A DNA stretch of 64,000 bases from assembly GCA_045657425.1 (NCBI GenBank), contig JAZOTA010000004.1:13908-77907 (forward strand). Reading direction: 5' to 3'. The notes below the pieces were generated by a model that did no database searches, was not told the DNA's origin, and was given only the letters and a program-made list of their open reading frames with translations. This document shows, piece after piece, positions 10,610 through 47,022 of this stretch; the stretch's first letter is position 1, and every line of letters begins with the position of its first letter. This stretch comes from Eubacteriales bacterium (GTDB taxonomy: Bacteria > Bacillota > Clostridia > Oscillospirales > CAG-382). The translations under genes and the position numbers were made by a program.

Positions 10610-11439
10610 AGAATCATACCTCCGTCTTCTTCATCATCGGAAAACTTATTGATAACCGCAATCGAAAGCATAATGATAATCATCAAAATAAACGAAATCG
10701 CACTACCAAAATTCCAATTTTCACTATTCAAAAACGAATCCTCGATAACCTCACCAATAAGACGGTTATCGGTTCCGCCCAATTTTTTAGAAATATAGAA
10801 CGTACTGATTGCAGGAACGAACACCATGGTTATTCCCGAAACGATACCACTCTTGGAAAGCGGCAAAATAACCTTCATAATAACTTGGAATTTGTTACAA
10901 CCAAGGTCTTGTGAAGCCTCGATAACATTCTTATCAAGCTTAGAGATAACGGTATAAATAGGCAACACCATAAAGGGCAAATAGTTATAAACCATACCCA
11001 AAATAACCGCAAACGGAGTATTGATCATATGAATCGGGTCATCCAAAAGACCGAGCGCGGTGTTGATAACGCCCGTATCCTCAATAAGATTACCCAAAGA
11101 GTAGGTTCTGATAACGAGATTAGTCCACATAGGCAACATAATAAGCATAATTGCCAACTTTTGCGTTCTGGGTTTTGATTGCGAAACAAAATATGCCAAA
11201 GGAAATGCAATCAAAAGACAAATCACGGTAGCAAGAAATGCATAAGCAACCGAACGTGAAAATATTGATAAATATTCCTTTTCGGCTAACTTTTCTATGT
11301 TTTGAAACGTGAATGAGCCCGTACCGTCTGTAAACGTGTAGTAAACTACCATAATCAAAGGTATTACGATAAACAGCACCGACCAGACGGTATAGGGTGC
11401 CGCTACGAACCTTTGAAGTAGCGATGAGCGTCTATTCAT
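10606..11439 (-). CDS. potB: Spermidine/putrescine ABC transporter permease
   Basis: BPD-transport permease with [23 protein letters not shown] loop. Overlaps potA by 8 nt. Confidence 0.8.
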
Positions 11440-36530: not shown

Positions 36531-37195
36531 ATGAAATTTAAATATCTTTTGTTTGATCTCGACGGGACGTTGATAGATACCACCGAAGGTGTTTTAAAGT
36601 CTGCCCAAAATGCACTGAAAAGCTTTGGAATTTTCGTTGAAACCGAAAATCTAATGAACTTTTTTGGTCCGCCTTTACAGTATTCGTTTTCAACACTTTA
36701 CGGTCTGTCCGATGCAGATACCAATAAGGCAGTCGAAATTTATAACGAACGCTATAATAAATTCGGTATAGCGAATCACATATTTTCCCCGAGATCAAAG
36801 CACTTCTTCCTAAATTGAAAGAAGCCGGTTATATTCTCGGTGTTGCTACCTCAAAGCCGCAAGACCAAGCAATCGAAATGTTAAATTATCATTCCGTCTA
36901 CGATTATTTTGACTTTATATCCGGCGCAAGTGCAGACGGTAGCATTAGCAAAAAGGACGAGGTTATTAAGGAAGCATTAAGACACTTCAGAATCACCGAT
37001 GAGCTTGATAAGGTTCTTATGATCGGCGATATGAAATTTGATATTATAGGCGCAAAAAAATGCGGTATAGATTCTTTTGGAATCTATACCGGTACTGCTT
37101 GCACAGATGAGCTTGAAAACGAAGGCGCCAACTATGTAGCGTATAGTTTCGACGAGCTTGAAAACAAATTACTCGTTGATTTTTTGAACAATTAA
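36531..37195 (+). pseudogene. HAD-superfamily phosphatase (PGP/PpaX-like) interrupted by a -1 frameshift in a T4C4 run
   Basis: ORF 36531-36818 carries motif I (FDLDGTLIDT). The frame starting at 36761 carries the rest (GVATSK, GDMKFDI). The two frames join naturally around 36780-36791 (atattttcccc): ...NHIF|PEIKALLPKLKEAGY. Confidence 0.7.
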
Positions 37196-37698
37196 TCTTT
37201 GTTTTCTTGCAGTTCTTTTTTACTTAGGAATTTATCATTTCCAACATCGGTTATACGCGAAATAAACTCGGCATATTTTCGTTTTGTTGAACGTGTATTA
37301 TACAACAAAAGTATGCCAATGATAATAGATGCACCAAGCAAAACATTAACCGTTACCGGCGATTCTCCGCGATCGATAACAATATATCTAATATAAGCCA
37401 ACAATGCTATTATCAACGCAATTGCAATATAGTCAATAACAGATTTTGCAAAAATCCCGCTTATCTCGCTTCCCTTTTCGGTTTTTGCAATTTTGCCGTA
37501 AAAAACACAAGAAAACGGTTCACGCTTTGAACGTGCTCGGCGAACAAGCCGCACCTTATCGTCTTTACGTTTGGAAACGTAAATCAGATCCATAACGTCG
37601 TCAGAGCCCGCAAAACGCGCAGGCGATGTAAATTCATCCCAACGACTTGTCAATTCTTCTTTAGAAAAACAGCTGTTAAATTTATGCACAATTAACAC
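37192..37698 (-). CDS. Hypothetical two-TM membrane protein
   Basis: 168-aa ORF with a GTG start beside GAGGTG. Hydrophobic segments IDYIAIALIIALLAYIRYIVI and VNVLLGASIIIGILLLY. No recognisable family. Confidence 0.4.
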   Translation of the reverse strand: MLIVHKFNSCFSKEELTSRWDEFTSPARFAGSDDVMDLIYVSKRKDDKVRLVRRARSKREPFSCVFYGKIAKTEKGSEISGIFAKSVIDYIAIALIIALLAYIRYIVIDRGESPVTVNVLLGASIIIGILLLYNTRSTKRKYAEFISRITDVGNDKFLSKKELQENKD

Positions 37699-37777
37699 CT
37701 CTGAATTTTTATAGTTGAATTATAACACACGCACAAACGCAAGTCAATCGCATATTTTTCGGAAAGGGGGAGAATGT

Positions 37778-38605
37778 ATGCATCGATTAATCAAAGGAAT
37801 CAAGTACTTTGGACGCAAAATTTCTGCAAGCAGAATCAGCGCATATTCGGCACAAACCGCCTACTTTATGTTCCTCTCTCTCATTCCGCTTATAATGCTA
37901 CTGCTATCGTTATTGCAATTACTCGGTGATACAGGCGAAACGGTCACACAAACGATCAGCGAGGTTATGCCCGGTGTATTGGGCGAATTCATTAACGACT
38001 TTATAAACGAAATAATGTCCGACGGAAGGTTAACACTCACGATCGTCTCTGCAGCGTTGTTACTATGGTCGGCATCGCGCGGAGTCTTCTCGATAATCGG
38101 CGGTTTAAACTCGGTTTACGAGATAAAAGAAACAAGAAAATATCTTTGGGTGCGTTTTCTTTCAATAGTTTATACTCTGGCTTTTATAGTCATTGTTTGC
38201 GGTGTTCTGCTTATTATTGTCTTCGGTGACACGCTTATTAATCTTTCGAACTCTTTTTTCCCAAACCTAAAGGGATTGGTTTATATCATCGCTTCCCTTC
38301 GCTTCATTTTGGGATTCATAATATTGGTTTTGTTTTTCTCAATCATATACAAGAGTATGCCTTGCAAAAAGATGAAATTTGTCGACCAAATTCCGGGCGC
38401 CGTTATTTCGGGTGCAGGTTGGGTTTCGTTTTCGATTCTCTTCTCTTTCTACGTTGACAATTTCAGCAACTACGCTAACGTTTACGGCTCGTTGACCGCC
38501 ATTATCGTTTTAATGCTTTGGCTGTATACCTGTATGTATATAATGTTCATCGGTGCAGAAATCAACTGCATTCTGTCTTCAAAGGTCAACAATCAAAAGA
38601 AATAA
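37778..38605 (+). CDS. YihY/BrkB-family membrane protein
   Basis: SAYSAQTAYFMFLSLIPLIMLL and the ending YGSLTAIIVLMLWLYTCMYIMFIGAEIN are YihY hallmarks. Start at MHRLIKG (37778) after GGGGGAG. Confidence 0.75.
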   Translation: MHRLIKGIKYFGRKISASRISAYSAQTAYFMFLSLIPLIMLLLSLLQLLGDTGETVTQTISEVMPGVLGEFINDFINEIMSDGRLTLTIVSAALLLWSASRGVFSIIGGLNSVYEIKETRKYLWVRFLSIVYTLAFIVIVCGVLLIIVFGDTLINLSNSFFPNLKGLVYIIASLRFILGFIILVLFFSIIYKSMPCKKMKFVDQIPGAVISGAGWVSFSILFSFYVDNFSNYANVYGSLTAIIVLMLWLYTCMYIMFIGAEINCILSSKVNNQKK

Positions 38606-38656
38606 GACAACTGACGTTTTGACATTTACACTTTTATAAATTCAAGAGGATTAATT

Positions 38657-40069
38657 ATGATTTTTGCAGATTTGTTTTTTATGTTTGCATTCTTACCTTT
38701 ATGCTTTTTGTTCTACTTTATGTTCAAAAGCTTAAAGGCAAAAAACTGGGTACTTATCGTATTCTCGCTGGTCTTTTATGCGTGCGGTGAACCGATTAAG
38801 ATTTTGTTGTTTGTCAGCAGTGCGGCAATTAACTATTTCCTCGCATTATGGATGGACAAGGCGCGCGGAACCAAATATTGCAAAATGGCAATGTCACTTT
38901 CGCTCATCTACAACATAGGTATGCTTGGTTTATTTAAATACACCGATTTCATTATCGGAAACATAAACGGCATTTTCGGCTCTTCTATTCCGCTTCTCAA
39001 GCTCGCACTGCCTCTTGGCATTAGCTTCTACACATTCCAGATTATGTCCTATATGATCGACGTATATTGGGAAAAAGTTCCGGTTCAGAAGCATTTCAAC
39101 AAATTATTGTTATACATTTCCCTCTTCCCGCAATTGGTTGCAGGCCCGATCGTGCGTTACCAAACAATTGCCGATGAAATCGATAACCGTACAACCACTT
39201 TAAAAGACGTTATCGAAGGCGGCTTGCGTATCATCGTCGGTCTTTCCAAAAAGGTTCTTTTGGCTAACAATTTGAACCTGATTGTTGCAAAGTGCTTTGG
39301 CGAAAACGTTTCCGAGGCGTCAGTTGCCGCAACTTGGTTTGGCGTTATCGCTTATTCGATGCAGGTTTATTTCGACTTCTCCGGTTATTCGGATATGGCA
39401 ATCGGTATCGGCAGAATATTCGGCTTCCACTTTGACGAAAACTTCAAGCACCCCTTTATGTGCCGTTCTATTTCGGAATTCTGGCAAAGATGGCATATTT
39501 CGCTTGGCAGTTTCTTCCGCGACTACCTCTTGTATCTACCGATTTTTGGCAAAAGACGTGCAGTTTTGTCGTTGTTCCTCGTTTGGTTTACCACAGGTCT
39601 TTGGCACGGCGCAAGCTGGAACTATGTAATTTGGGGACTTTATTTCGGTGTATTCATCTTCATCGAAACGTTAATAGGCAAAAAGCGTCTTAAAAATGCG
39701 CCTACTGCATTAATGCACATATACAACAAGCTCGTAATACTTATCGGCTTCGGTATCTTCAAGTTTGAAAACTCAAGCGACCTTATCAACTTCTTCAAAA
39801 ATCTCGTAGGCGCTAACGGCAACATTCTGTATAACGATGACTTTTTCACGGTAGTTACTACCAACGTCTTTATATTCTCAATCGCGCTTATCGCTTGCTT
39901 CCCAATCATCCCTTATCTCAGAAAACGACTTGAAAACTCAAGCCCAATTGTTTATTCGATTGGCTTGATAACCGCAACTATTTTGGCGATTCTCCTCTTG
40001 TTTATCAACACAAGCGTTCTTGTCAAAACCTTCAGCAGTAACAATCCTTTCCTTTATTGGAACTTTTAG
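38657..40069 (+). CDS. MBOAT-family membrane O-acyltransferase (DltB/AlgI/PatA-like) ending in a DltX-like aromatic hexapeptide
   Basis: 470-aa polytopic protein. Catalytic-His context SEFWQRWHISLGSFFRDYLLY. The extreme C-terminus is PFLYWNF. Confidence 0.9.
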   Translation: MIFADLFFMFAFLPLCFLFYFMFKSLKAKNWVLIVFSLVFYACGEPIKILLFVSSAAINYFLALWMDKARGTKYCKMAMSLSLIYNIGMLGLFKYTDFIIGNINGIFGSSIPLLKLALPLGISFYTFQIMSYMIDVYWEKVPVQKHFNKLLLYISLFPQLVAGPIVRYQTIADEIDNRTTTLKDVIEGGLRIIVGLSKKVLLANNLNLIVAKCFGENVSEASVAATWFGVIAYSMQVYFDFSGYSDMAIGIGRIFGFHFDENFKHPFMCRSISEFWQRWHISLGSFFRDYLLYLPIFGKRRAVLSLFLVWFTTGLWHGASWNYVIWGLYFGVFIFIETLIGKKRLKNAPTALMHIYNKLVILIGFGIFKFENSSDLINFFKNLVGANGNILYNDDFFTVVTTNVFIFSIALIACFPIIPYLRKRLENSSPIVYSIGLITATILAILLLFINTSVLVKTFSSNNPFLYWNF

Positions 40070-40079
40070 GTGATAAAAT

Positions 40080-41501
40080 ATGAAAAATTTCACTATCAAA
40101 TTATGCGCTATTCTTTTAGCGCTGACACTTTTGTTCATGTTCGTCTTTTGCGTATTTCTTCCGCGCGAAACCGAATCCAACTACACAACATTAAAGGAAT
40201 GGCCCGAATTTTCCTTTGAAGATCTGTTTTCGGGCAAGTATTTTAAAGGCATCAGCGACTACTTTTCCGATACTATTTACGGTCGCGATACATTTGTAGA
40301 CTTTGAAACAAAGATCAACGGTCTTTACGGCTTGGAGGAAGAAGAAAAAATCATTACACTCAAGCCCGATGAATCCGTTCCCGACCAGGAACAGTCAGTT
40401 TCAGATGAAACATCTACCGAAACAGAAAGCTCGCAGATAGAAAGCAGTGATAGCTCCGATTATTCCTCGGAAGCACCCGAAAGCAGCTTTACCCCCGACG
40501 AATCCGAACCCGAAATCGAATCACAACCCGAAGAGTCGAAGCCCGAACAAGGCGGCGGACTTGCTGAAATTTCCGGTTCAATCCTTATTATCGGCAACCG
40601 TGCTATGGAAATTTACTACGGAAATCAAAATGGCGCGCTCCGTTACGCAAATATTCTGAACAATTTTGCCGAAAAGCTTGACCCCTCGGTTAACGTTTAC
40701 TCTATGGTAATTCCCAAATCAAGCGCTTATTATATCGGTCAAGCATCTCAACAAAAGTATCAAAAGCTTGCCGGCTGTAACAAGAACGATATCGATACCA
40801 TTTCCAACACACTTTCTGACAAGGTAATCGACGTAAACATTTACGACATTCTCGGTCGCCACGCAAATGAAGAGATCTACGCACGCACCGACCACCACTG
40901 GACCGCTTTGGGCGCATATTACGCATCCAGCGTTTTCGCTCAAAAAGCAGGTGTTGCGTTTGACGATATCTCAAACTTTGAAGAGGTAAGAAGACCCGGT
41001 TACCTCGGAACCTATTACTACGTATTTTCATCCAAAGACAACAACGCTGTACTTCAAAACAACCCGGAAGATTTTCTCTCGTTTATTCCCGATACCAAAT
41101 ATACCGTCGAATATTACTCGTCGAGCGGTTTTTCAAACGGCGCAATCAATGAAAGCAAACTTAGTGCACACAACGGCTTTTTCTTTGAAATTTCCGATAA
41201 AAAGATCGGCAGCTGGTATTCAACCTTCATTTTGGGTGATACCTATTGTGTTAAAGCAAAATCCGAAGAATGCAAAAACGGCAGAAAGCTTCTTATCATC
41301 AAGGATAGCTACGGCAACGCGCTCGCACCGTTTATGATTGAAGGATTCGAAGAAGTTTATGTTGTTGACGGCAGAAAATACGCCAAGAACTTAAAAGAAA
41401 CCATTAATGAATTCGGCATTACCGACGTCTTGTTTGCAGAAGTTACCTTCTCTGCAGTGGGCAAGGATTATTTAAACGCACTTGAGGAGATTTGTAAATA
41501 A
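40080..41501 (+). CDS. DHHW-family (AlgJ/AlgX/DltD-like SGNH) extracytoplasmic acyltransferase, N-terminal TM anchor
   Basis: TM LCAILLALTLLFMFVFCVFL, then a Ser/Glu/Pro-rich acidic linker. Motifs: YARTDHHWTALGAYYAS and IIKDSYGNALAPF. Confidence 0.8.
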   Translation: MKNFTIKLCAILLALTLLFMFVFCVFLPRETESNYTTLKEWPEFSFEDLFSGKYFKGISDYFSDTIYGRDTFVDFETKINGLYGLEEEEKIITLKPDESVPDQEQSVSDETSTETESSQIESSDSSDYSSEAPESSFTPDESEPEIESQPEESKPEQGGGLAEISGSILIIGNRAMEIYYGNQNGALRYANILNNFAEKLDPSVNVYSMVIPKSSAYYIGQASQQKYQKLAGCNKNDIDTISNTLSDKVIDVNIYDILGRHANEEIYARTDHHWTALGAYYASSVFAQKAGVAFDDISNFEEVRRPGYLGTYYYVFSSKDNNAVLQNNPEDFLSFIPDTKYTVEYYSSSGFSNGAINESKLSAHNGFFFEISDKKIGSWYSTFILGDTYCVKAKSEECKNGRKLLIIKDSYGNALAPFMIEGFEEVYVVDGRKYAKNLKETINEFGITDVLFAEVTFSAVGKDYLNALEEICK

Positions 41502-41503
41502 CC

Positions 41504-42928
41504 ATGAAAAAATTAGCACTTTTGCTTCTTCCTATTTTACTCTGTATAATTCTTATCGCTTGTGATACTGGGACCGAAAACGTTTCGAGTATTTCCGATA
41601 TTTCCGAAGCCGAAAGCTCAAACGGAAACGAATCAGACGTTTCGATAACCGAAACCTCGGAAGATAGCACAGGCACCGATAATAACAGTTCCGCAACCGA
41701 AGAGAGCTCCGAACCGACCGAAAGCAGCAATGTCGAACCTGCTACTATTCAAAAAGAGCTTGATGTTACTGTAACTGTTCACGGTACCACCGCCCTTGGA
41801 AATGCAGGCCTTTCGGTTAAATCCGGTTATTCAAAGAACCAAAAAATTACTGTTGAAGGTGAAAAAGACCTCATCGACTCTTTGGATGCTTCTAAAATCA
41901 GTGCCGAGATTGATGTATCCGGTACATCTACTATGGGAACCTTTGATTTTTTGATTATCTACAAAGTACCCGAAAACGTTAAAATCGTAAGCACCTCTGC
42001 AGAATATCTTTCTTTGGAAATTGTTAAAAAGCCCGAAGAAACCGTTACTCCGCCCAGCAATACTGCGTATATCACCAACGGCATAATAATCGCCGGTAAC
42101 AGAGGTATGGAGCAGTTCGGCGGCACTGTAGCAAGTGGCGAAAAGACTGCGCAAAAGCTTAATGAATTCAAAAAAGCAGTCGGCGCAGATATAAACGTTT
42201 ATATTATGGCTTGCCCTTCGGCAGGAGCCTTTTATGCACCCGAAAAATACCCTAACAACATCAAAAATCACATTAACTGCTTTAACGGCATCAAAGACAA
42301 TCTTGTAGACGTTAAATTTGTTGATACTTTAACTGCATTGGGCGCTCACACGGACGAATACATCTATCTCCGCACCGACTTCCACTGGAGCGGTTTGGGC
42401 GCTTATTATGCCGCAAAGGAACTTGCGAAGGTTGCAGGTACTCCTTTTGACGACATCTCTACTTATACCGAACACAGTGTTGACGGACTTAAAGGCAGTC
42501 TTGTTAGTTATGCACCCGTTCTGGCTAATTATCCCGACACCTTATATTGGTACGTTCCCAGCCGTCAGCATACAGTTACGTACTACAGTGCAACAAACTT
42601 TAAGAATCCCATTACCGGAAGAACCTTGTTTTCAAACAACAACGGATACTCAAAGTTCATCTACGGCGACTCGTATACCACTCACATTCAGTCTGACGTG
42701 AACAACGGAAGAAAACTCCTTATTTTCAAGGATAGCTACGGAAATGCGCTCGCACCTTACGTACTTTCCTCTTTTGAAGAAGTTTATATAGCAGATTACC
42801 GAAAATTCACTCTCAACGCACTCGAGTTCATTGAGGAACACGACATTACAGACGTTTGCTTTGCAATGTCCGCTTTTGCGACATCCGGCAGCAAACGCGA
42901 TTATATTACAAAACTTCTGAAATATTAA
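41504..42928 (+). CDS. Second DHHW-family acyltransferase: lipoprotein with an inserted YbbR-like domain (motif variant DFHW)
   Basis: Lipobox IILIAC and an acidic S/E linker. YbbR-like segment ITVEGEKDLIDSLDASKISAEIDVSG. Motifs: YLRTDFHWSGLGAYYAA and IFKDSYGNALAPY. Confidence 0.75.
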   Translation: MKKLALLLLPILLCIILIACDTGTENVSSISDISEAESSNGNESDVSITETSEDSTGTDNNSSATEESSEPTESSNVEPATIQKELDVTVTVHGTTALGNAGLSVKSGYSKNQKITVEGEKDLIDSLDASKISAEIDVSGTSTMGTFDFLIIYKVPENVKIVSTSAEYLSLEIVKKPEETVTPPSNTAYITNGIIIAGNRGMEQFGGTVASGEKTAQKLNEFKKAVGADINVYIMACPSAGAFYAPEKYPNNIKNHINCFNGIKDNLVDVKFVDTLTALGAHTDEYIYLRTDFHWSGLGAYYAAKELAKVAGTPFDDISTYTEHSVDGLKGSLVSYAPVLANYPDTLYWYVPSRQHTVTYYSATNFKNPITGRTLFSNNNGYSKFIYGDSYTTHIQSDVNNGRKLLIFKDSYGNALAPYVLSSFEEVYIADYRKFTLNALEFIEEHDITDVCFAMSAFATSGSKRDYITKLLKY

Positions 42929-42938
42929 GGAGAATATT

Positions 42939-44726
42939 ATGCCTGTAACTGCATATCCCTTTGATATTGATGCGCTTACCGACCATCGCAAAAGAACAAG
43001 ACGTGAGCTTATAAACGATGGCAGCAAACGCATAAAAAAGAAAATTGCCGTTTTAGGCGGATCCACAACCAACGATTTTATCAAGACCTTGGAGGTGTTT
43101 TTGCTTTCCGAAGGTATTGAGCCTGAATTTTACGAATCCGAATATAACCGTTTCTGGCAGGATGCGATGTTCGAAAATCCCGAGCTTTCGGAGTTTGCTC
43201 CGGACATCATCTATGTTCACACAAGCTATAGAAATATTGCTTCGTTTTTACCCGAAACGACCGATTCTGCCGAAGAAATTGAGTCCAAGATTAACGAGCG
43301 ATATTCCTATTACGAAAAAATGTGGAACCGCTTGGCAAGCGTATATTCCTGCCCGATAATTCAAAACAATTTCGAGCTTCCGCCTTACCGCCTTTTCGGT
43401 AACCGCGATTGCTATGATATTCACGGTGCAGTCAACTTTATAACCCGTTTGAATTTGCGTTTTGCTGAATATGCTCAGCAAAACCAGGGCTTTTACATTT
43501 GCGATATCAATTATATTGCTTCCTGCTTCGGTCTTGACAAATGGTTTGATGACCAAGCGTGGTATATGTATAAATATGCCTGCTCGCTTGATGCAGTTCC
43601 TTACGTCACAAAGAACCTTTCAAATATTATCAAATCTATCTTTGGCAAAAATAAAAAGGTTTTAGCGCTCGACCTCGACAACACCCTTTGGGGCGGCGTC
43701 GTTGGCGATGACGGAGTTGAAGGAATTGAAATCGGCGAAGAAACTGCCACCTCGGAATGTTACAAAGCATTTCAGGAATACGTTAAAAAACAAAAAAGCA
43801 TCGGTATTATGTTGACTGTTGCTTCGAAAAACGACCACGAAAACGCAATCGCAGGCCTTAATCACCCCGAGGGTGTGCTTCGCCCCGATGACTTTATCGT
43901 CATTAAAGCAAATTGGGAAACCAAGGACAGAAACCTTGTTGCAACAGCGAGCGAAATGGACCTCGGCATCGATTCCTTCGTCTTTGCGGACGATAACCCC
44001 ACCGAGCGCGCGCTTGTTGAACGCAGCATTAAAGGCATCGCTATTCCTGTATTCGACGTGCCCGCCGATTATATTCGCACCATCGACAGAAACGGATATT
44101 TCGAGGTTACCAACTTTTCCGCAGACGACTTGAAGCGTAACGATATGTATAAGGCAAACGTCAAGCGCGCTGAGCTTTCAACAGAGTTTGCGGACTACAC
44201 CGAATATCTGTTGAGCTTGGATATGAGAGGCGAAATCAAACCGTTTTCTCCCGTTTTTATGCAACGCATTACCCAATTGACCAACAAATCCAACCAGTTT
44301 AACCTTACAACTAAACGTTACACTCAACCCGAAATCGAATCGGTCGCAAACGACGGCAAGCACATTACCCTTTATGGTAAGCTTTCCGACACCTTTGGTG
44401 ATAACGGCGTTGTTTCGGTTGTTATTGGTCAAATCAAGGACAATATTTGCGATATAGACCTTTGGCTTATGAGCTGCCGTGTTCTTAAAAAGAATATGGA
44501 ATATGCAATGCTTGATACTCTTGTAAAAGAGTGCAAAGATAGGTCTATTGACACGATAATAGGTCACTACTACCCCACCGCAAAGAACGGAATGGTCAAA
44601 AACCTCTTTAATGATTTCGGTTTCGAAAAAACATTTGAAGGCGAAGACGGCACGACCGAATGGAAGCTTTCGCTTACCGATTATCAAAACAAAAACAACG
44701 TAATTAAAGTTAATCTGGAGGAATAA
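42939..44726 (+). CDS. FkbH-like HAD-IIIC family protein (predicted acyl/glyceryl loader for the adjacent ACP)
   Basis: HAD motif I in KVLALDLDNTLWGGVVGDDGVEGIEIG. The C-terminal GNAT-like part carries the FkbH-type cysteine motif DLWLMSCRVLKKNME. Confidence 0.8.
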   Translation: MPVTAYPFDIDALTDHRKRTRRELINDGSKRIKKKIAVLGGSTTNDFIKTLEVFLLSEGIEPEFYESEYNRFWQDAMFENPELSEFAPDIIYVHTSYRNIASFLPETTDSAEEIESKINERYSYYEKMWNRLASVYSCPIIQNNFELPPYRLFGNRDCYDIHGAVNFITRLNLRFAEYAQQNQGFYICDINYIASCFGLDKWFDDQAWYMYKYACSLDAVPYVTKNLSNIIKSIFGKNKKVLALDLDNTLWGGVVGDDGVEGIEIGEETATSECYKAFQEYVKKQKSIGIMLTVASKNDHENAIAGLNHPEGVLRPDDFIVIKANWETKDRNLVATASEMDLGIDSFVFADDNPTERALVERSIKGIAIPVFDVPADYIRTIDRNGYFEVTNFSADDLKRNDMYKANVKRAELSTEFADYTEYLLSLDMRGEIKPFSPVFMQRITQLTNKSNQFNLTTKRYTQPEIESVANDGKHITLYGKLSDTFGDNGVVSVVIGQIKDNICDIDLWLMSCRVLKKNMEYAMLDTLVKECKDRSIDTIIGHYYPTAKNGMVKNLFNDFGFEKTFEGEDGTTEWKLSLTDYQNKNNVIKVNLEE

Positions 44727-44729
44727 ATT

Positions 44730-44966
44730 ATGGCACAAAATATTAACGAAAGACTTAACGAAGTATTCCAAAACGTTTTTGATGACGAAGACATCACCGT
44801 TGATCGCGAAACTACCGCTGACGATATTGAAGATTGGGACAGTCTTGAGCACATTCGTCTTATCGCGGCTGTTGAACGTGAATTCGGTATGAAATTCACC
44901 ATGAAAGAAGTCAGCGCAATGAAAAACGTTGGCGAAATGATGGACATCATCGCTGAAAGAGCATAA
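44730..44966 (+). CDS. Acyl carrier protein (discrete, DltC-like role predicted)
   Basis: 78 aa and acidic, with phosphopantetheine-attachment context DIEDWDSLEHIRLIAAVEREFG. Starts 3 nt after the FkbH-like stop. Confidence 0.85.
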   Translation: MAQNINERLNEVFQNVFDDEDITVDRETTADDIEDWDSLEHIRLIAAVEREFGMKFTMKEVSAMKNVGEMMDIIAERA

Positions 44967-44988
44967 CCAAAACCGATAAACAATAACT

Positions 44989-45026
44989 AAAGAGGAATTG
45001 TTCATATACGAGCAATTCCTCTTTTT
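44989..45026 (+). terminator. Rho-independent terminator closing the MBOAT-ACP operon
   Basis: aaagaggaattg-(12 nt loop)-caattcctcttt followed by tt. Confidence 0.8.
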
Positions 45027-45128
45027 AAATAACAGCTGTGATATGCTTTATAAAATTCCCGATGAATGCAAAGAAGAAAACACAAGAGCAAAGACGCGAA
45101 ATTCGTAGCTTAAAATAATATTTACAAA

Positions 45129-45164
45129 AATCCCGTGCATACCAATTGTGATATGCACGGGATT
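45129..45164 (-). terminator. Terminator of typA
   Basis: Minus strand reads aatcccgtgcat-(loop)-atgcacgggatt followed by tttgtaaa. Confidence 0.7.
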
Positions 45165-45177
45165 AATTGTTATTACA

Positions 45178-47022
45178 CTATTTTTCTGCAGCCGCTTTCT
45201 TTGCTCTGCTTTCCGCTTTCATTCTTAATTCTTTATTAAGAATACGCTTGCGGATACGGATCGATTGAGGCGTTACCTCGATAAGCTCGTCATCTGCAAT
45301 AAATTCAATCGCTTCTTCAAGCGACATAATGATAGGCGGAGTGAGAATAAGCTTTTCATCGGCACCTGCGGAACGAATTGCGGTAAGCTGCTTTTTCTTG
45401 CAGGGATTAATCGCCATATCTTCACCCTTGGGGTTAATACCAACGACCATACCTTCATATACATTCATACCGGGGCCTACGAACAAATTACCGCGGTCTT
45501 GCGAGTTATAGCAACCGTAAGAGGTTGTTTCGCCATCTTCACTTGCAATAAGCGAACCGGTAAAGCGAATCTGAATATCGCCTTTAAAGGGCTTGTATCC
45601 TTCAAAAATGGAGTTAAGAATACCTTCGCCGCGAGTGGCGGACATAAACATATTTCTGTAACCGATAAGGCAACGCGCGGGAATCGAATATTCGATCTTC
45701 ATACGAGTGCCGTTACCGTTAGGGTTCATTTGAAGAAGATCGCCTTTACGTCTGCTCAGCTCTTCAACAACAGTACCAACATAATCATTGGGAACGTCAG
45801 CAGTAACAAGCTCAAAGGGCTCACACTTAACGCCGTCAATCTCTTTAAAGAGAACGCGCGGAGTCGAACAGCAAAGCTCAAAACCTTCACGGCGCATATT
45901 TTCAACAAGAATCGAAAGGTGCATTTCGCCACGACCTGCAACGTTAAAGCAATCGGTAGTGTCACCTTCGTTTACACGAAGTGAAACGTCCTTCAAAAGC
46001 TCCTTGAATAATCTGTCGCGTAATTGACGCGAGGTTACAAACTTACCTTCTCTACCTGCAAACGGAGAATCATTAACCGAGAAGGTCATTTCCATTGTAG
46101 GTTCGCCAACCTTAACAAATTCCAAAGGTTCGGGACAAGTAACGGACGTAATGGTATCACCAATAGTAATATCTTCAGCACCCGAGAAGCACACGATGTC
46201 GCCCATATTAGCGGTTTGAACGGGTACACGGTTAAGACCGTCGATCTGATAAAGCGAAACAATTTTCGTTTTCTTAGGTGTAGCACCGGAGTGATAGTTG
46301 GTAATAAATACCTCCTGTCCCTGCTTGATAGAACCGCGTTCGATTCTACCGATACCTATACGACCTACATATTCATTATAGTCGATTGAAGAAACGAGCA
46401 ATTGCAATTCACCGTCAGGATCACCTTCGGGTGCAGGAATATGAGAAAGAATGGTTTCGAAAAGGGGTTGGAGATCCTTACCCGCTTCATAGGGAGAAAG
46501 CGAAGCAGTGCCGGCTCTTCCGGAACAGAACAGCGTGGGGCTTTCGAGCTGTTCATCGCTTGCGTCGAGGTCAAAAAGAAGCTCGAGAACTTCATCCATA
46601 ACCTCTTCGATTCTTGCATCGGCGCGGTCGATTTTATTGATAACAACGATAACCTTATGGTTAAGCTCGAGCGCTCTTTGCAAAACGAATCTGGTTTGAG
46701 GCATAGGTCCTTCAGCCGCATCGACCAAAAGGATAACACCGTTTACCATTTTAAGAATACGCTCAACCTCGCCTCCGAAATCGGCGTGTCCCGGGGTGTC
46801 GATAACGTTAATTTTAACGTCTTTATAGTGGATGGCAGTGTTTTTTGCGAGAATGGTAATACCGCGCTCGCGCTCGAGAGCGTTATTATCCATAACGCGA
46901 TCCTCGGTAACCTGATTTTCGCGGAATACGCCGCCTTGCTTAAGCATTTCGTCAACAAGAGTAGTTTTGCCGTGGTCAACGTGAGCGATAATTGCGATAT
47001 TTCTTAAATCTTCTCTAACCAT
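45178..47022 (-). CDS. typA: Translational GTPase TypA/BipA
   Basis: [36 protein letters not shown], and 614 aa with the BipA-specific C-terminal domain. Confidence 0.95.

Follow-up and report, generated by a model that had tools for sequence, protein, structure and literature searches.

The MBOAT-family acyltransferase encoded at 38657..40069 of the window (the whole 64,000-nucleotide stretch of contig JAZOTA010000004.1 analysed here, from the Eubacteriales bacterium assembly GCA_045657425.1) ends in the hexapeptide FLYWNF (F465-L-Y467-W-N-F470), which is likely to act in cis as a tyrosine acyl shuttle. The tail itself is a known and nearly universal feature of this class of MBOAT and is ordinary at that level. 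The gene shares an operon with those for two DHHW-family proteins, an FkbH-domain protein and an acyl carrier protein (ACP), and the unusual part is that a shuttle held in cis seems here to be fed by a carrier protein. All window features described below lie on the forward strand.

C-terminal tail of the MBOAT and its conservation

The gene encodes an AlgI/PatA-type protein of 470 amino acids in which a catalytic core (Pfam PF03062, 84.4 bits) is joined to the candidate shuttle tail. A GAGGA ribosome-binding site precedes the ATG, and 51 nt separate the MBOAT from the end of the upstream open reading frame (ORF) at 38605. The C terminus reads ...ATILAILLLFINTSVLVKTFSSNNPFLYWNF in the ORF translation, and the last residues of the 470-amino acid chain are ...IVYSIGLITATILAILLLFINTSVLVKTFSSNNPFLYWNF, that is ...SSNNPFLYWNF and then the stop. 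The hexapeptide, residues 465-470 at 40049..40066, is encoded by ttc ctt tat tgg aac ttt with the Tyr467 codon at 40055-40057 and the stop TAG at 40067-40069, and is assigned as an FXYXXF acyl-shuttle motif from its sequence, its conservation and the definition given in PMC12148441. An earlier reading of this DNA from the letters alone (the sequence-only reading) had placed FLYWNF as the last six residues directly before the stop, preceded by a hydrophobic helix and with a 51-nt gap upstream of the gene; the codons and the gap are exact, and the helix corresponds to residues 430-458 of the AlphaFold2 (AF2) model, the strongest hydropathy peak at 2.54.

Aligning the C termini of orthologous MBOATs, a check suggested together with that reading, returns a conserved tail. 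The F.Y..F end is present in 115 of 120 close homologues (58-94% identity), where the four full-length exceptions all retain the tyrosine (YLYMSF, YLYFRF, FLYAKNF and FLYAPY) and the fifth is a fragment, and in 136 of 150 cluster representatives at 38-56% identity, the remainder being mostly truncated or chimeric entries or having the tyrosine retained. Tyr467, His280 and His317 are all invariant columns in an alignment of 49 sequences extending down to 42% identity, and in an alignment of 135 sequences the tyrosine column holds Y 131, F 2 and C 1. The mean frequency of the commonest residue in this larger alignment is 0.77 over the last 10 residues compared with 0.14-0.36 across residues 371-460, such that the end of the protein is conserved to the level of the catalytic core whereas the ~90 residues before the tail are poorly conserved. 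The extended consensus of the tail is [ST]-[YF]-N-P-F-[IL]-Y-F-[RNQ]-F, to which the window MBOAT corresponds with S-N-N-P-F-L-Y-W-N-F.

The genome encodes a second MBOAT on contig C87 (252-1637, minus strand, locus L001) of 461 amino acids, with 44% identity over 393 aligned residues and the tail SPFLYYIF. The DHHW gene after it runs past the contig end, and no second FkbH or ACP is found in the assembly.

Published motif, catalytic core and topology

The FXYXXF "acyl shuttle" motif is described by Anderson et al. (PMC12148441) as separate in DltX and fused to the C terminus of PatA/AlgI-type MBOATs. In the summary of the Dlt system given there, DltB moves D-Ala from DltC to the invariant tyrosine of the DltX FXYXXF motif and DltX passes it on to DltD, whereas other bacterial MBOATs work without DltX and carry the motif at their own C terminus on two extra transmembrane (TM) helices absent from DltB. 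PatA auto-acetylates the motif tyrosine, a Tyr-to-Phe variant is inactive, and PatB takes an acetylated FIYANF peptide as donor (PMC12148441). The DltX motif in the DltB structure paper is FLYFGF (PMC11035591). What the sequence-only reading had stated about these systems agrees with the sources, namely that DltX ends in a hexapeptide of the F-I-Y-N-[DE]-F type (FXYXXF and FLYFGF in the literature, FIYNEF in a fetched DltX), that its tyrosine carries the acyl group from the MBOAT to DltD (as summarized in PMC12148441) and that the same motif is fused to the C terminus in other bacterial MBOATs (PMC12148441). The evidence supports that reading as correct rather than new, since the literature already describes the fused motif as general among bacterial MBOATs of the PatA/AlgI type.

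Five true DltB proteins (above the TIGR04091 cut-off; 384-393 amino acids, one of 467) have no tail and show unrelated ends such as FSGHLNRYF, and in two of their dlt loci, from the same phylum as the window, DltX ORFs confirmed by Pfam at 74 and 29 bits end in FIYNEF and YIYNAF. No match to the DltX model PF12459 at E<=1 is present in the ~80%-complete genome of the window organism, and a search of 37000-45300 for other frames ending in aromatic-x-Y-x-x-aromatic gives only two short ones (10 and 48 codons) with no hydrophobic helix. A fused tail would make a separate DltX microprotein unnecessary, as the sequence-only reading had argued in linking the tail to the lack of a DltX-like ORF; the genome without a PF12459 match and the interval without a credible micro-ORF fit that account.

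A stand-alone DltX candidate on contig C44 (5354-5455, minus strand), a hydrophobic ORF of 33 codons ending in FIYRLF, was rejected and is taken as a chance match: it is intergenic, its neighbour is a 158-amino acid ORF interpreted as a sigma factor, and the surroundings hold neither an MBOAT nor an SGNH gene. Other Bacillota genomes yielded three short DltB-like MBOATs (416-428 amino acids) that stay under the cut-off, and two of these are followed by ORFs of 54 and 58 codons ending in FIYGGF and FIYTDF (L050 2691-2855; L051 2452-2628). These small ORFs score below the DltX Pfam cut-off and are probably stand-alone shuttle microproteins, placed downstream of the MBOAT unlike the upstream position in dlt.

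The AF2 model of the window MBOAT has a mean predicted local distance difference test score (pLDDT) of 84 and a predicted template modelling score (pTM) of 0.86, and in Foldseek it matches DltB (6bug_C) best, then PORCN and HHAT. With the DltB equivalog model TIGR04091 the protein reaches 148.8 bits, short of the cut-off of 375 bits, and the family profile matches the DltB structures (6bug, 8jem) over query residues 11-344 only. The invariant MBOAT catalytic histidine is His317 (motif LWHG, codon 39605..39607), which aligns with the GFWHG histidine of DltB 6bug/8jem, and a second conserved histidine, His280 (motif RWHISL, codon 39494..39496), aligns with RWHMSL of DltB. The DltB equivalent of His317, His336, is located at the bottom of an extracellular funnel in the solved structures (PMC11035591).

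Beyond His317 the model contains helices at residues 321-340, 350-369 and 394-413, a short helix at 417-426 and a helix at 430-458, after which the tail is unstructured. Residues 394-413 (39836..39895) form the first extra TM helix, lying outside the DltB alignment and predicted to cross from out to in; residues 417-426 (LRKRLENS..., 39905..39934) form a short K/R-rich peripheral helix predicted to be cytoplasmic; and residues 430-458 (39944..40030) form the second extra TM helix, predicted to cross from in to out and bearing the tail. These three helices reproduce the PatA layout of a TM helix, a cytoplasmic peripheral helix and a motif-bearing TM helix, with residues 417-426 matching the helix alpha16 described for PatA (PMC12148441). 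The tail is predicted to be extracytoplasmic, on the same side as the catalytic His317, because four TM crossings separate it from this extracellular residue and because loops 341-349 and 414-429, both rich in K and R, lie toward the cytoplasm as expected from the positive-inside rule. Averaged over the 135 sequences, these two loops hold 2.4 and 2.9 K+R, respectively, loop 370-393 holds 1.1 K+R compared with 2.2 D+E, and the tail holds 0.66 K+R. A topology prediction had been proposed with the sequence-only reading as a check on an outward-facing tail, and its outcome is in agreement.

In the mechanism envisaged, the MBOAT would accept an acyl group from a cytoplasmic thioester donor via a transmembrane tunnel, and His317 would catalyze its transfer to the hydroxyl of Tyr467, carried on a flexible tail that extends from the final TM helix at its outer end. 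The acylated tail would then swing to the active-site serine of an adjacent DHHW (AlgX/PatB1-like) transferase, which would esterify a cell-wall polymer. By homology to PatA and DltX, an acyl-tyrosine intermediate formed and delivered to the DHHW serine in this manner is probable.

Operon genes and the acyl donor

The identity of the donor is a separate matter. Conserved gene linkage gives a modest leaning toward the operon ACP, loaded by the FkbH-domain protein with a glycerate-type hydroxyacyl group, rather than acetyl-CoA. The FkbH enzymes of polyketide pathways handle a glyceryl unit, and the glyceryl proposal is made by analogy with these. Thirty-eight loci encoding FkbH relatives (53-97% identity) were fetched from species-representative genomes. 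The order MBOAT-DHHW(-DHHW)-FkbH-ACP occurs in 18 of these and the order FkbH-ACP-(MaoC-like)-MBOAT in five, where the MBOATs are 29-35% identical to the window MBOAT; a further eight are cut by the contig end with DHHW-FkbH-ACP or FkbH-ACP still visible. Three further orthologues at 58-61% identity, from an independent look-up, have MBOAT-DHHW(-DHHW)-FkbH followed by an 80-amino acid gene. Counted with the 18 and the five, they bring the loci of other genomes that link FkbH-ACP with an MBOAT to 26, in two gene orders. The linked MBOATs end in F-[LI]-Y in 25 of 25 cases, with the strict F.Y..F in 22 and FLYAKNF (twice) and FLYLQW in the others. Because the linkage recurs with divergent MBOATs and in either gene order, a functional tie is well supported, though not proven. 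Among the loci examined the operon is found mainly in metagenome-assembled genomes (MAGs) of gut and rumen Clostridia, and no description of an FkbH-ACP arrangement with an MBOAT/SGNH pair was found in the literature searched, a limited collection.

In loci of the alternative order (L028 11015-11434; L038 11560-18781; L039 1328-2851) a MaoC-like dehydratase can stand between the ACP and the MBOAT, and loci with this dehydratase may process the acyl unit further. L038 has three consecutive MBOATs with the tails FIYQDF, FIYFQF and FIYFQF, and the proteins of 351-373 amino acids encoded after the alternative-order MBOATs have no Pfam match. The residues W468 and N469 were considered as markers of the FkbH-linked subgroup and rejected, FkbH-linked MBOATs also ending in FLYFRF, FLYATF, FIYGGF and FIYFQF.

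The intergenic gaps along the window operon, from the MBOAT through DHHW1, DHHW2 and FkbH to the ACP, are 10, 2, 10 and 3 nt. DHHW1 (40080..41501) is a DHHW/AlgX-like SGNH-type transferase with an N-terminal TM anchor (Pfam DHHW 210 bits; TDHHW and KDSYG motifs) and probably takes over the acyl group that Tyr467 carries. It matches PDB code 4NZK with E 3.9e-60 and Bacillus cereus PatB1 (PDB code 5V8D) with E 1.6e-8. The first of these is an uncharacterised Eubacterium siraeum protein closely related to DHHW1, so a solved structure exists for a close relative of the probable shuttle acceptor. DHHW2 (41504..42928) is a second DHHW/AlgX-like transferase with a YbbR-like domain and a lipoprotein-like N terminus (Pfam DHHW 100, ALGX 34 and YbbR 26 bits; TDFHW and KDSYG motifs). 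Both DHHW proteins have the D-x-H-W and KDSYG blocks in common and both match the ALGX Pfam model, DHHW1 below its cut-off. The presence of two paralogues may reflect a relay as in AlgJ/AlgX or two acceptors. DHHW proteins are known partners of MBOATs in Bacillus secondary cell wall polysaccharide (SCWP) O-acetylation and in the clostridial cellulose locus (PMC9487903, PMC7710045).

The FkbH-domain/HAD-IIIC protein (42939..44726, 595 amino acids), the putative carrier loader, is identified by TIGR01686 (257.9 bits, cut-off 146.65), TIGR01681 and Pfam FkbH_N, and its residues 24-395 match PDB code 3SLR (Bacteroides BF1531, uncharacterised) with E 2.3e-51. The ACP (44730..44966, 78 amino acids, Pfam PP-binding) has a DSL phosphopantetheine-attachment site. 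Its matches are to generic ACPs, all under the NCBIfam cut-offs, with 2LML, a putative ACP, as the best PDB match, and no resemblance to DltC is seen in the NCBIfam and PDB comparisons. No AMP-binding (DltA) or DltD domain is present among the operon proteins.

A hairpin followed by a T-run at 44989..45026, read as AAGAGGAATTG...CAATTCCTCTTTTT, closes the operon. A consensus scan for promoters and terminators over 37400-45300 returned sites no more numerous than in shuffled sequence and did not list this hairpin, and is for these two reasons uninformative on the operon boundaries. Upstream of the MBOAT by 51 nt lies a BrkB/YihY-family membrane protein gene (37715..38605; Pfam PF03631, 197 bits). 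In 12 of 18 MBOAT-first loci, as well as in L041 and L042, the gene immediately preceding the MBOAT is again of the BrkB/YihY family, and the protein may belong to the system, for example by handling the acceptor polymer. Further upstream, the consecutive ORFs at 36531-36818 and 36815-37195 look like the halves of a HAD phosphatase split by a frameshift.

Alternative explanations and relation to known systems

Several observations weigh against the shuttle and its carrier-protein feed. The tail is modelled with low confidence (pLDDT ~55), and the helix-plus-tail segment has no match to PF12459, so that the likeness to DltX is one of motif and architecture and not of detectable homology. The pattern is short, and a hydrophobic membrane-protein C terminus could happen to fit F-x-Y-x-x-F. 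In the whole assembly (1.9 Mb, 87 contigs, ~80% complete), 3 of 3547 ORFs of at least 100 amino acids have this end, with 0.41 expected from composition; one of the three is a soluble-looking protein of 352 amino acids ending in FDYLIF, and the 33-codon intergenic ORF on contig C44 ends likewise. The other two are the genome's only two MBOATs, and among the relatives at 38-56% identity 136 of 150 have retained the tail while the 90 residues ahead of it diverge. The conservation data refute coincidence in practice, leaving it a negligible probability. A conserved tail could also be a plug or lid of the extracellular funnel, or a docking peptide for the DHHW protein, that is never acylated, the acyl group passing directly to the DHHW serine or the polymer. 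The tail is aromatic-rich, the aromatic cluster around the DltB active site would bind such a peptide (PMC11035591), and peptides of the DltX tail are ligands of DltD and DltE (PMC13653941). Against this, PatA cannot auto-acetylate without its motif tyrosine and the hexapeptide, once acetylated, works as a donor (PMC12148441), and the tyrosine is hardly ever replaced even by phenylalanine (2 of 135 sequences), which a hydrophobic plug would tolerate. A tail that is never acylated is quite improbable.

It is rather unlikely, with a chance that is still appreciable, that the tail is a shuttle in an ordinary acetyl-CoA-dependent O-acetyltransferase like Bacillus cereus PatA1/PatB1, with FkbH and the ACP serving another step such as the cytoplasmic synthesis of a glycerate or lactate substituent. 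Acetyl-CoA is the donor of all fused-motif MBOATs that have been characterised, and the non-Dlt MBOAT/SGNH pathways are stated to lack a carrier protein (PMC12148441). The window MBOAT is AlgI/PatA-like rather than DltB-like and far under the DltB equivalog cut-off; like the acetyl-CoA precedent, this weakens the proposal of a carrier-protein feed. In 7 of the 38 FkbH loci (L023, L026, L027, L029-L031 and L035) there is no MBOAT within 9 kb, the FkbH relatives being in polysaccharide-type loci or alone, and the genome's second MBOAT has the same type of tail in an assembly with a single FkbH and ACP found. Set against these points are the tie of FkbH-ACP to the MBOAT in 26 loci and two gene orders with MBOATs only ~30% identical, the tight gene junctions (in L033 the ACP ORF runs to 11003 and is followed at 11004 by the MBOAT), and the five-gene unit itself, in which no cytoplasmic acyltransferase or glycosyltransferase able to use acyl-ACP is encoded according to Pfam. 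A third configuration of envelope acylation, in which a carrier-fed MBOAT (FkbH to ACP, probably with a glyceryl-type group) is combined with an in-cis shuttle handing over to a two-DHHW relay, would account for this arrangement, and the proposal as a whole is evenly poised.

At the sequence level the MBOAT has every character of the fused-motif PatA/AlgI-type class (PatA, AlgI, PatA1, WssH and CcsH). The Dlt family characters are lacking, with the protein under the DltB cut-off and the system without DltX, DltA or DltD, and the small carrier alone is shared. The one departure from the published fused-motif class is the presence of the carrier protein and its loader. The PatA/PatB systems of Campylobacter jejuni and Neisseria gonorrhoeae (PMC12148441) have the same architecture: a pair of additional C-terminal TM helices separated by a cytoplasmic peripheral helix, a terminal FXYXXF, the catalytic histidine and an N-terminus-out/C-terminus-out topology, which for the window MBOAT is a prediction. 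In NgPatA the tail is FIYANF, and its tyrosine becomes acylated by the enzyme itself and passes the group to a partner of the SGNH type. The systems differ in the partner, which is PatB (DUF459) in those organisms and a pair of DHHW/AlgX-type proteins here; in the donor, which is acetyl-CoA there with no FkbH or ACP whereas both are in the operon here; and in the organism, the window deriving from a Gram-positive-type Clostridia MAG.

PatA1/PatB1 of SCWP O-acetylation in Bacillus cereus and Bacillus anthracis and CcsH/CcsI of Clostridia (PMC9487903, PMC7710045) likewise pair an MBOAT with a DHHW-family transferase in a Firmicute, but with one DHHW protein and no carrier or loader where the window has two DHHW paralogues, FkbH and the ACP. 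The DltXABCD system follows a similar plan, with a cytoplasmic loader, a small carrier, an MBOAT, a tyrosine hexapeptide held outward by one TM helix and a serine transferase outside the cell. It differs in that DltX is a separate microprotein of 40-60 amino acids whereas the shuttle here is fused to the MBOAT, and in having the adenylating DltA and DltD in place of an FkbH-domain loader and DHHW proteins. The AlgI/AlgJ/AlgF/AlgX system of alginate O-acetylation combines an AlgI-type fused-motif MBOAT with two AlgX-fold proteins as here, and one source names the homologue AlgI; in contrast, there are no alginate genes, AlgF or periplasm here, and the alginate donor is taken as acetyl-CoA.

Taken alone, the tail is a further instance of a mechanism published in 2023-2025 and lets the window MBOAT and its C87 paralogue be annotated as self-shuttling acyltransferases. 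Tyr467 offers a handle at one residue (Y467F) and a defined peptide on which the acyl group could be trapped and identified by mass spectrometry, which makes the chemistry of this uncharacterised operon directly testable. If the ACP is the donor, the form of the shuttle (separate or fused) would not depend on the type of donor (carrier protein or acyl-CoA), and the division made in the literature, with a carrier protein going together with a separate DltX and acyl-CoA with a fused motif, would be broken. The same tyrosine relay would then move acyl groups beyond acetyl and D-alanyl onto Gram-positive cell walls, and the wall of gut Oscillospiraceae and Lachnospiraceae would carry an undescribed hydroxyacyl ester.

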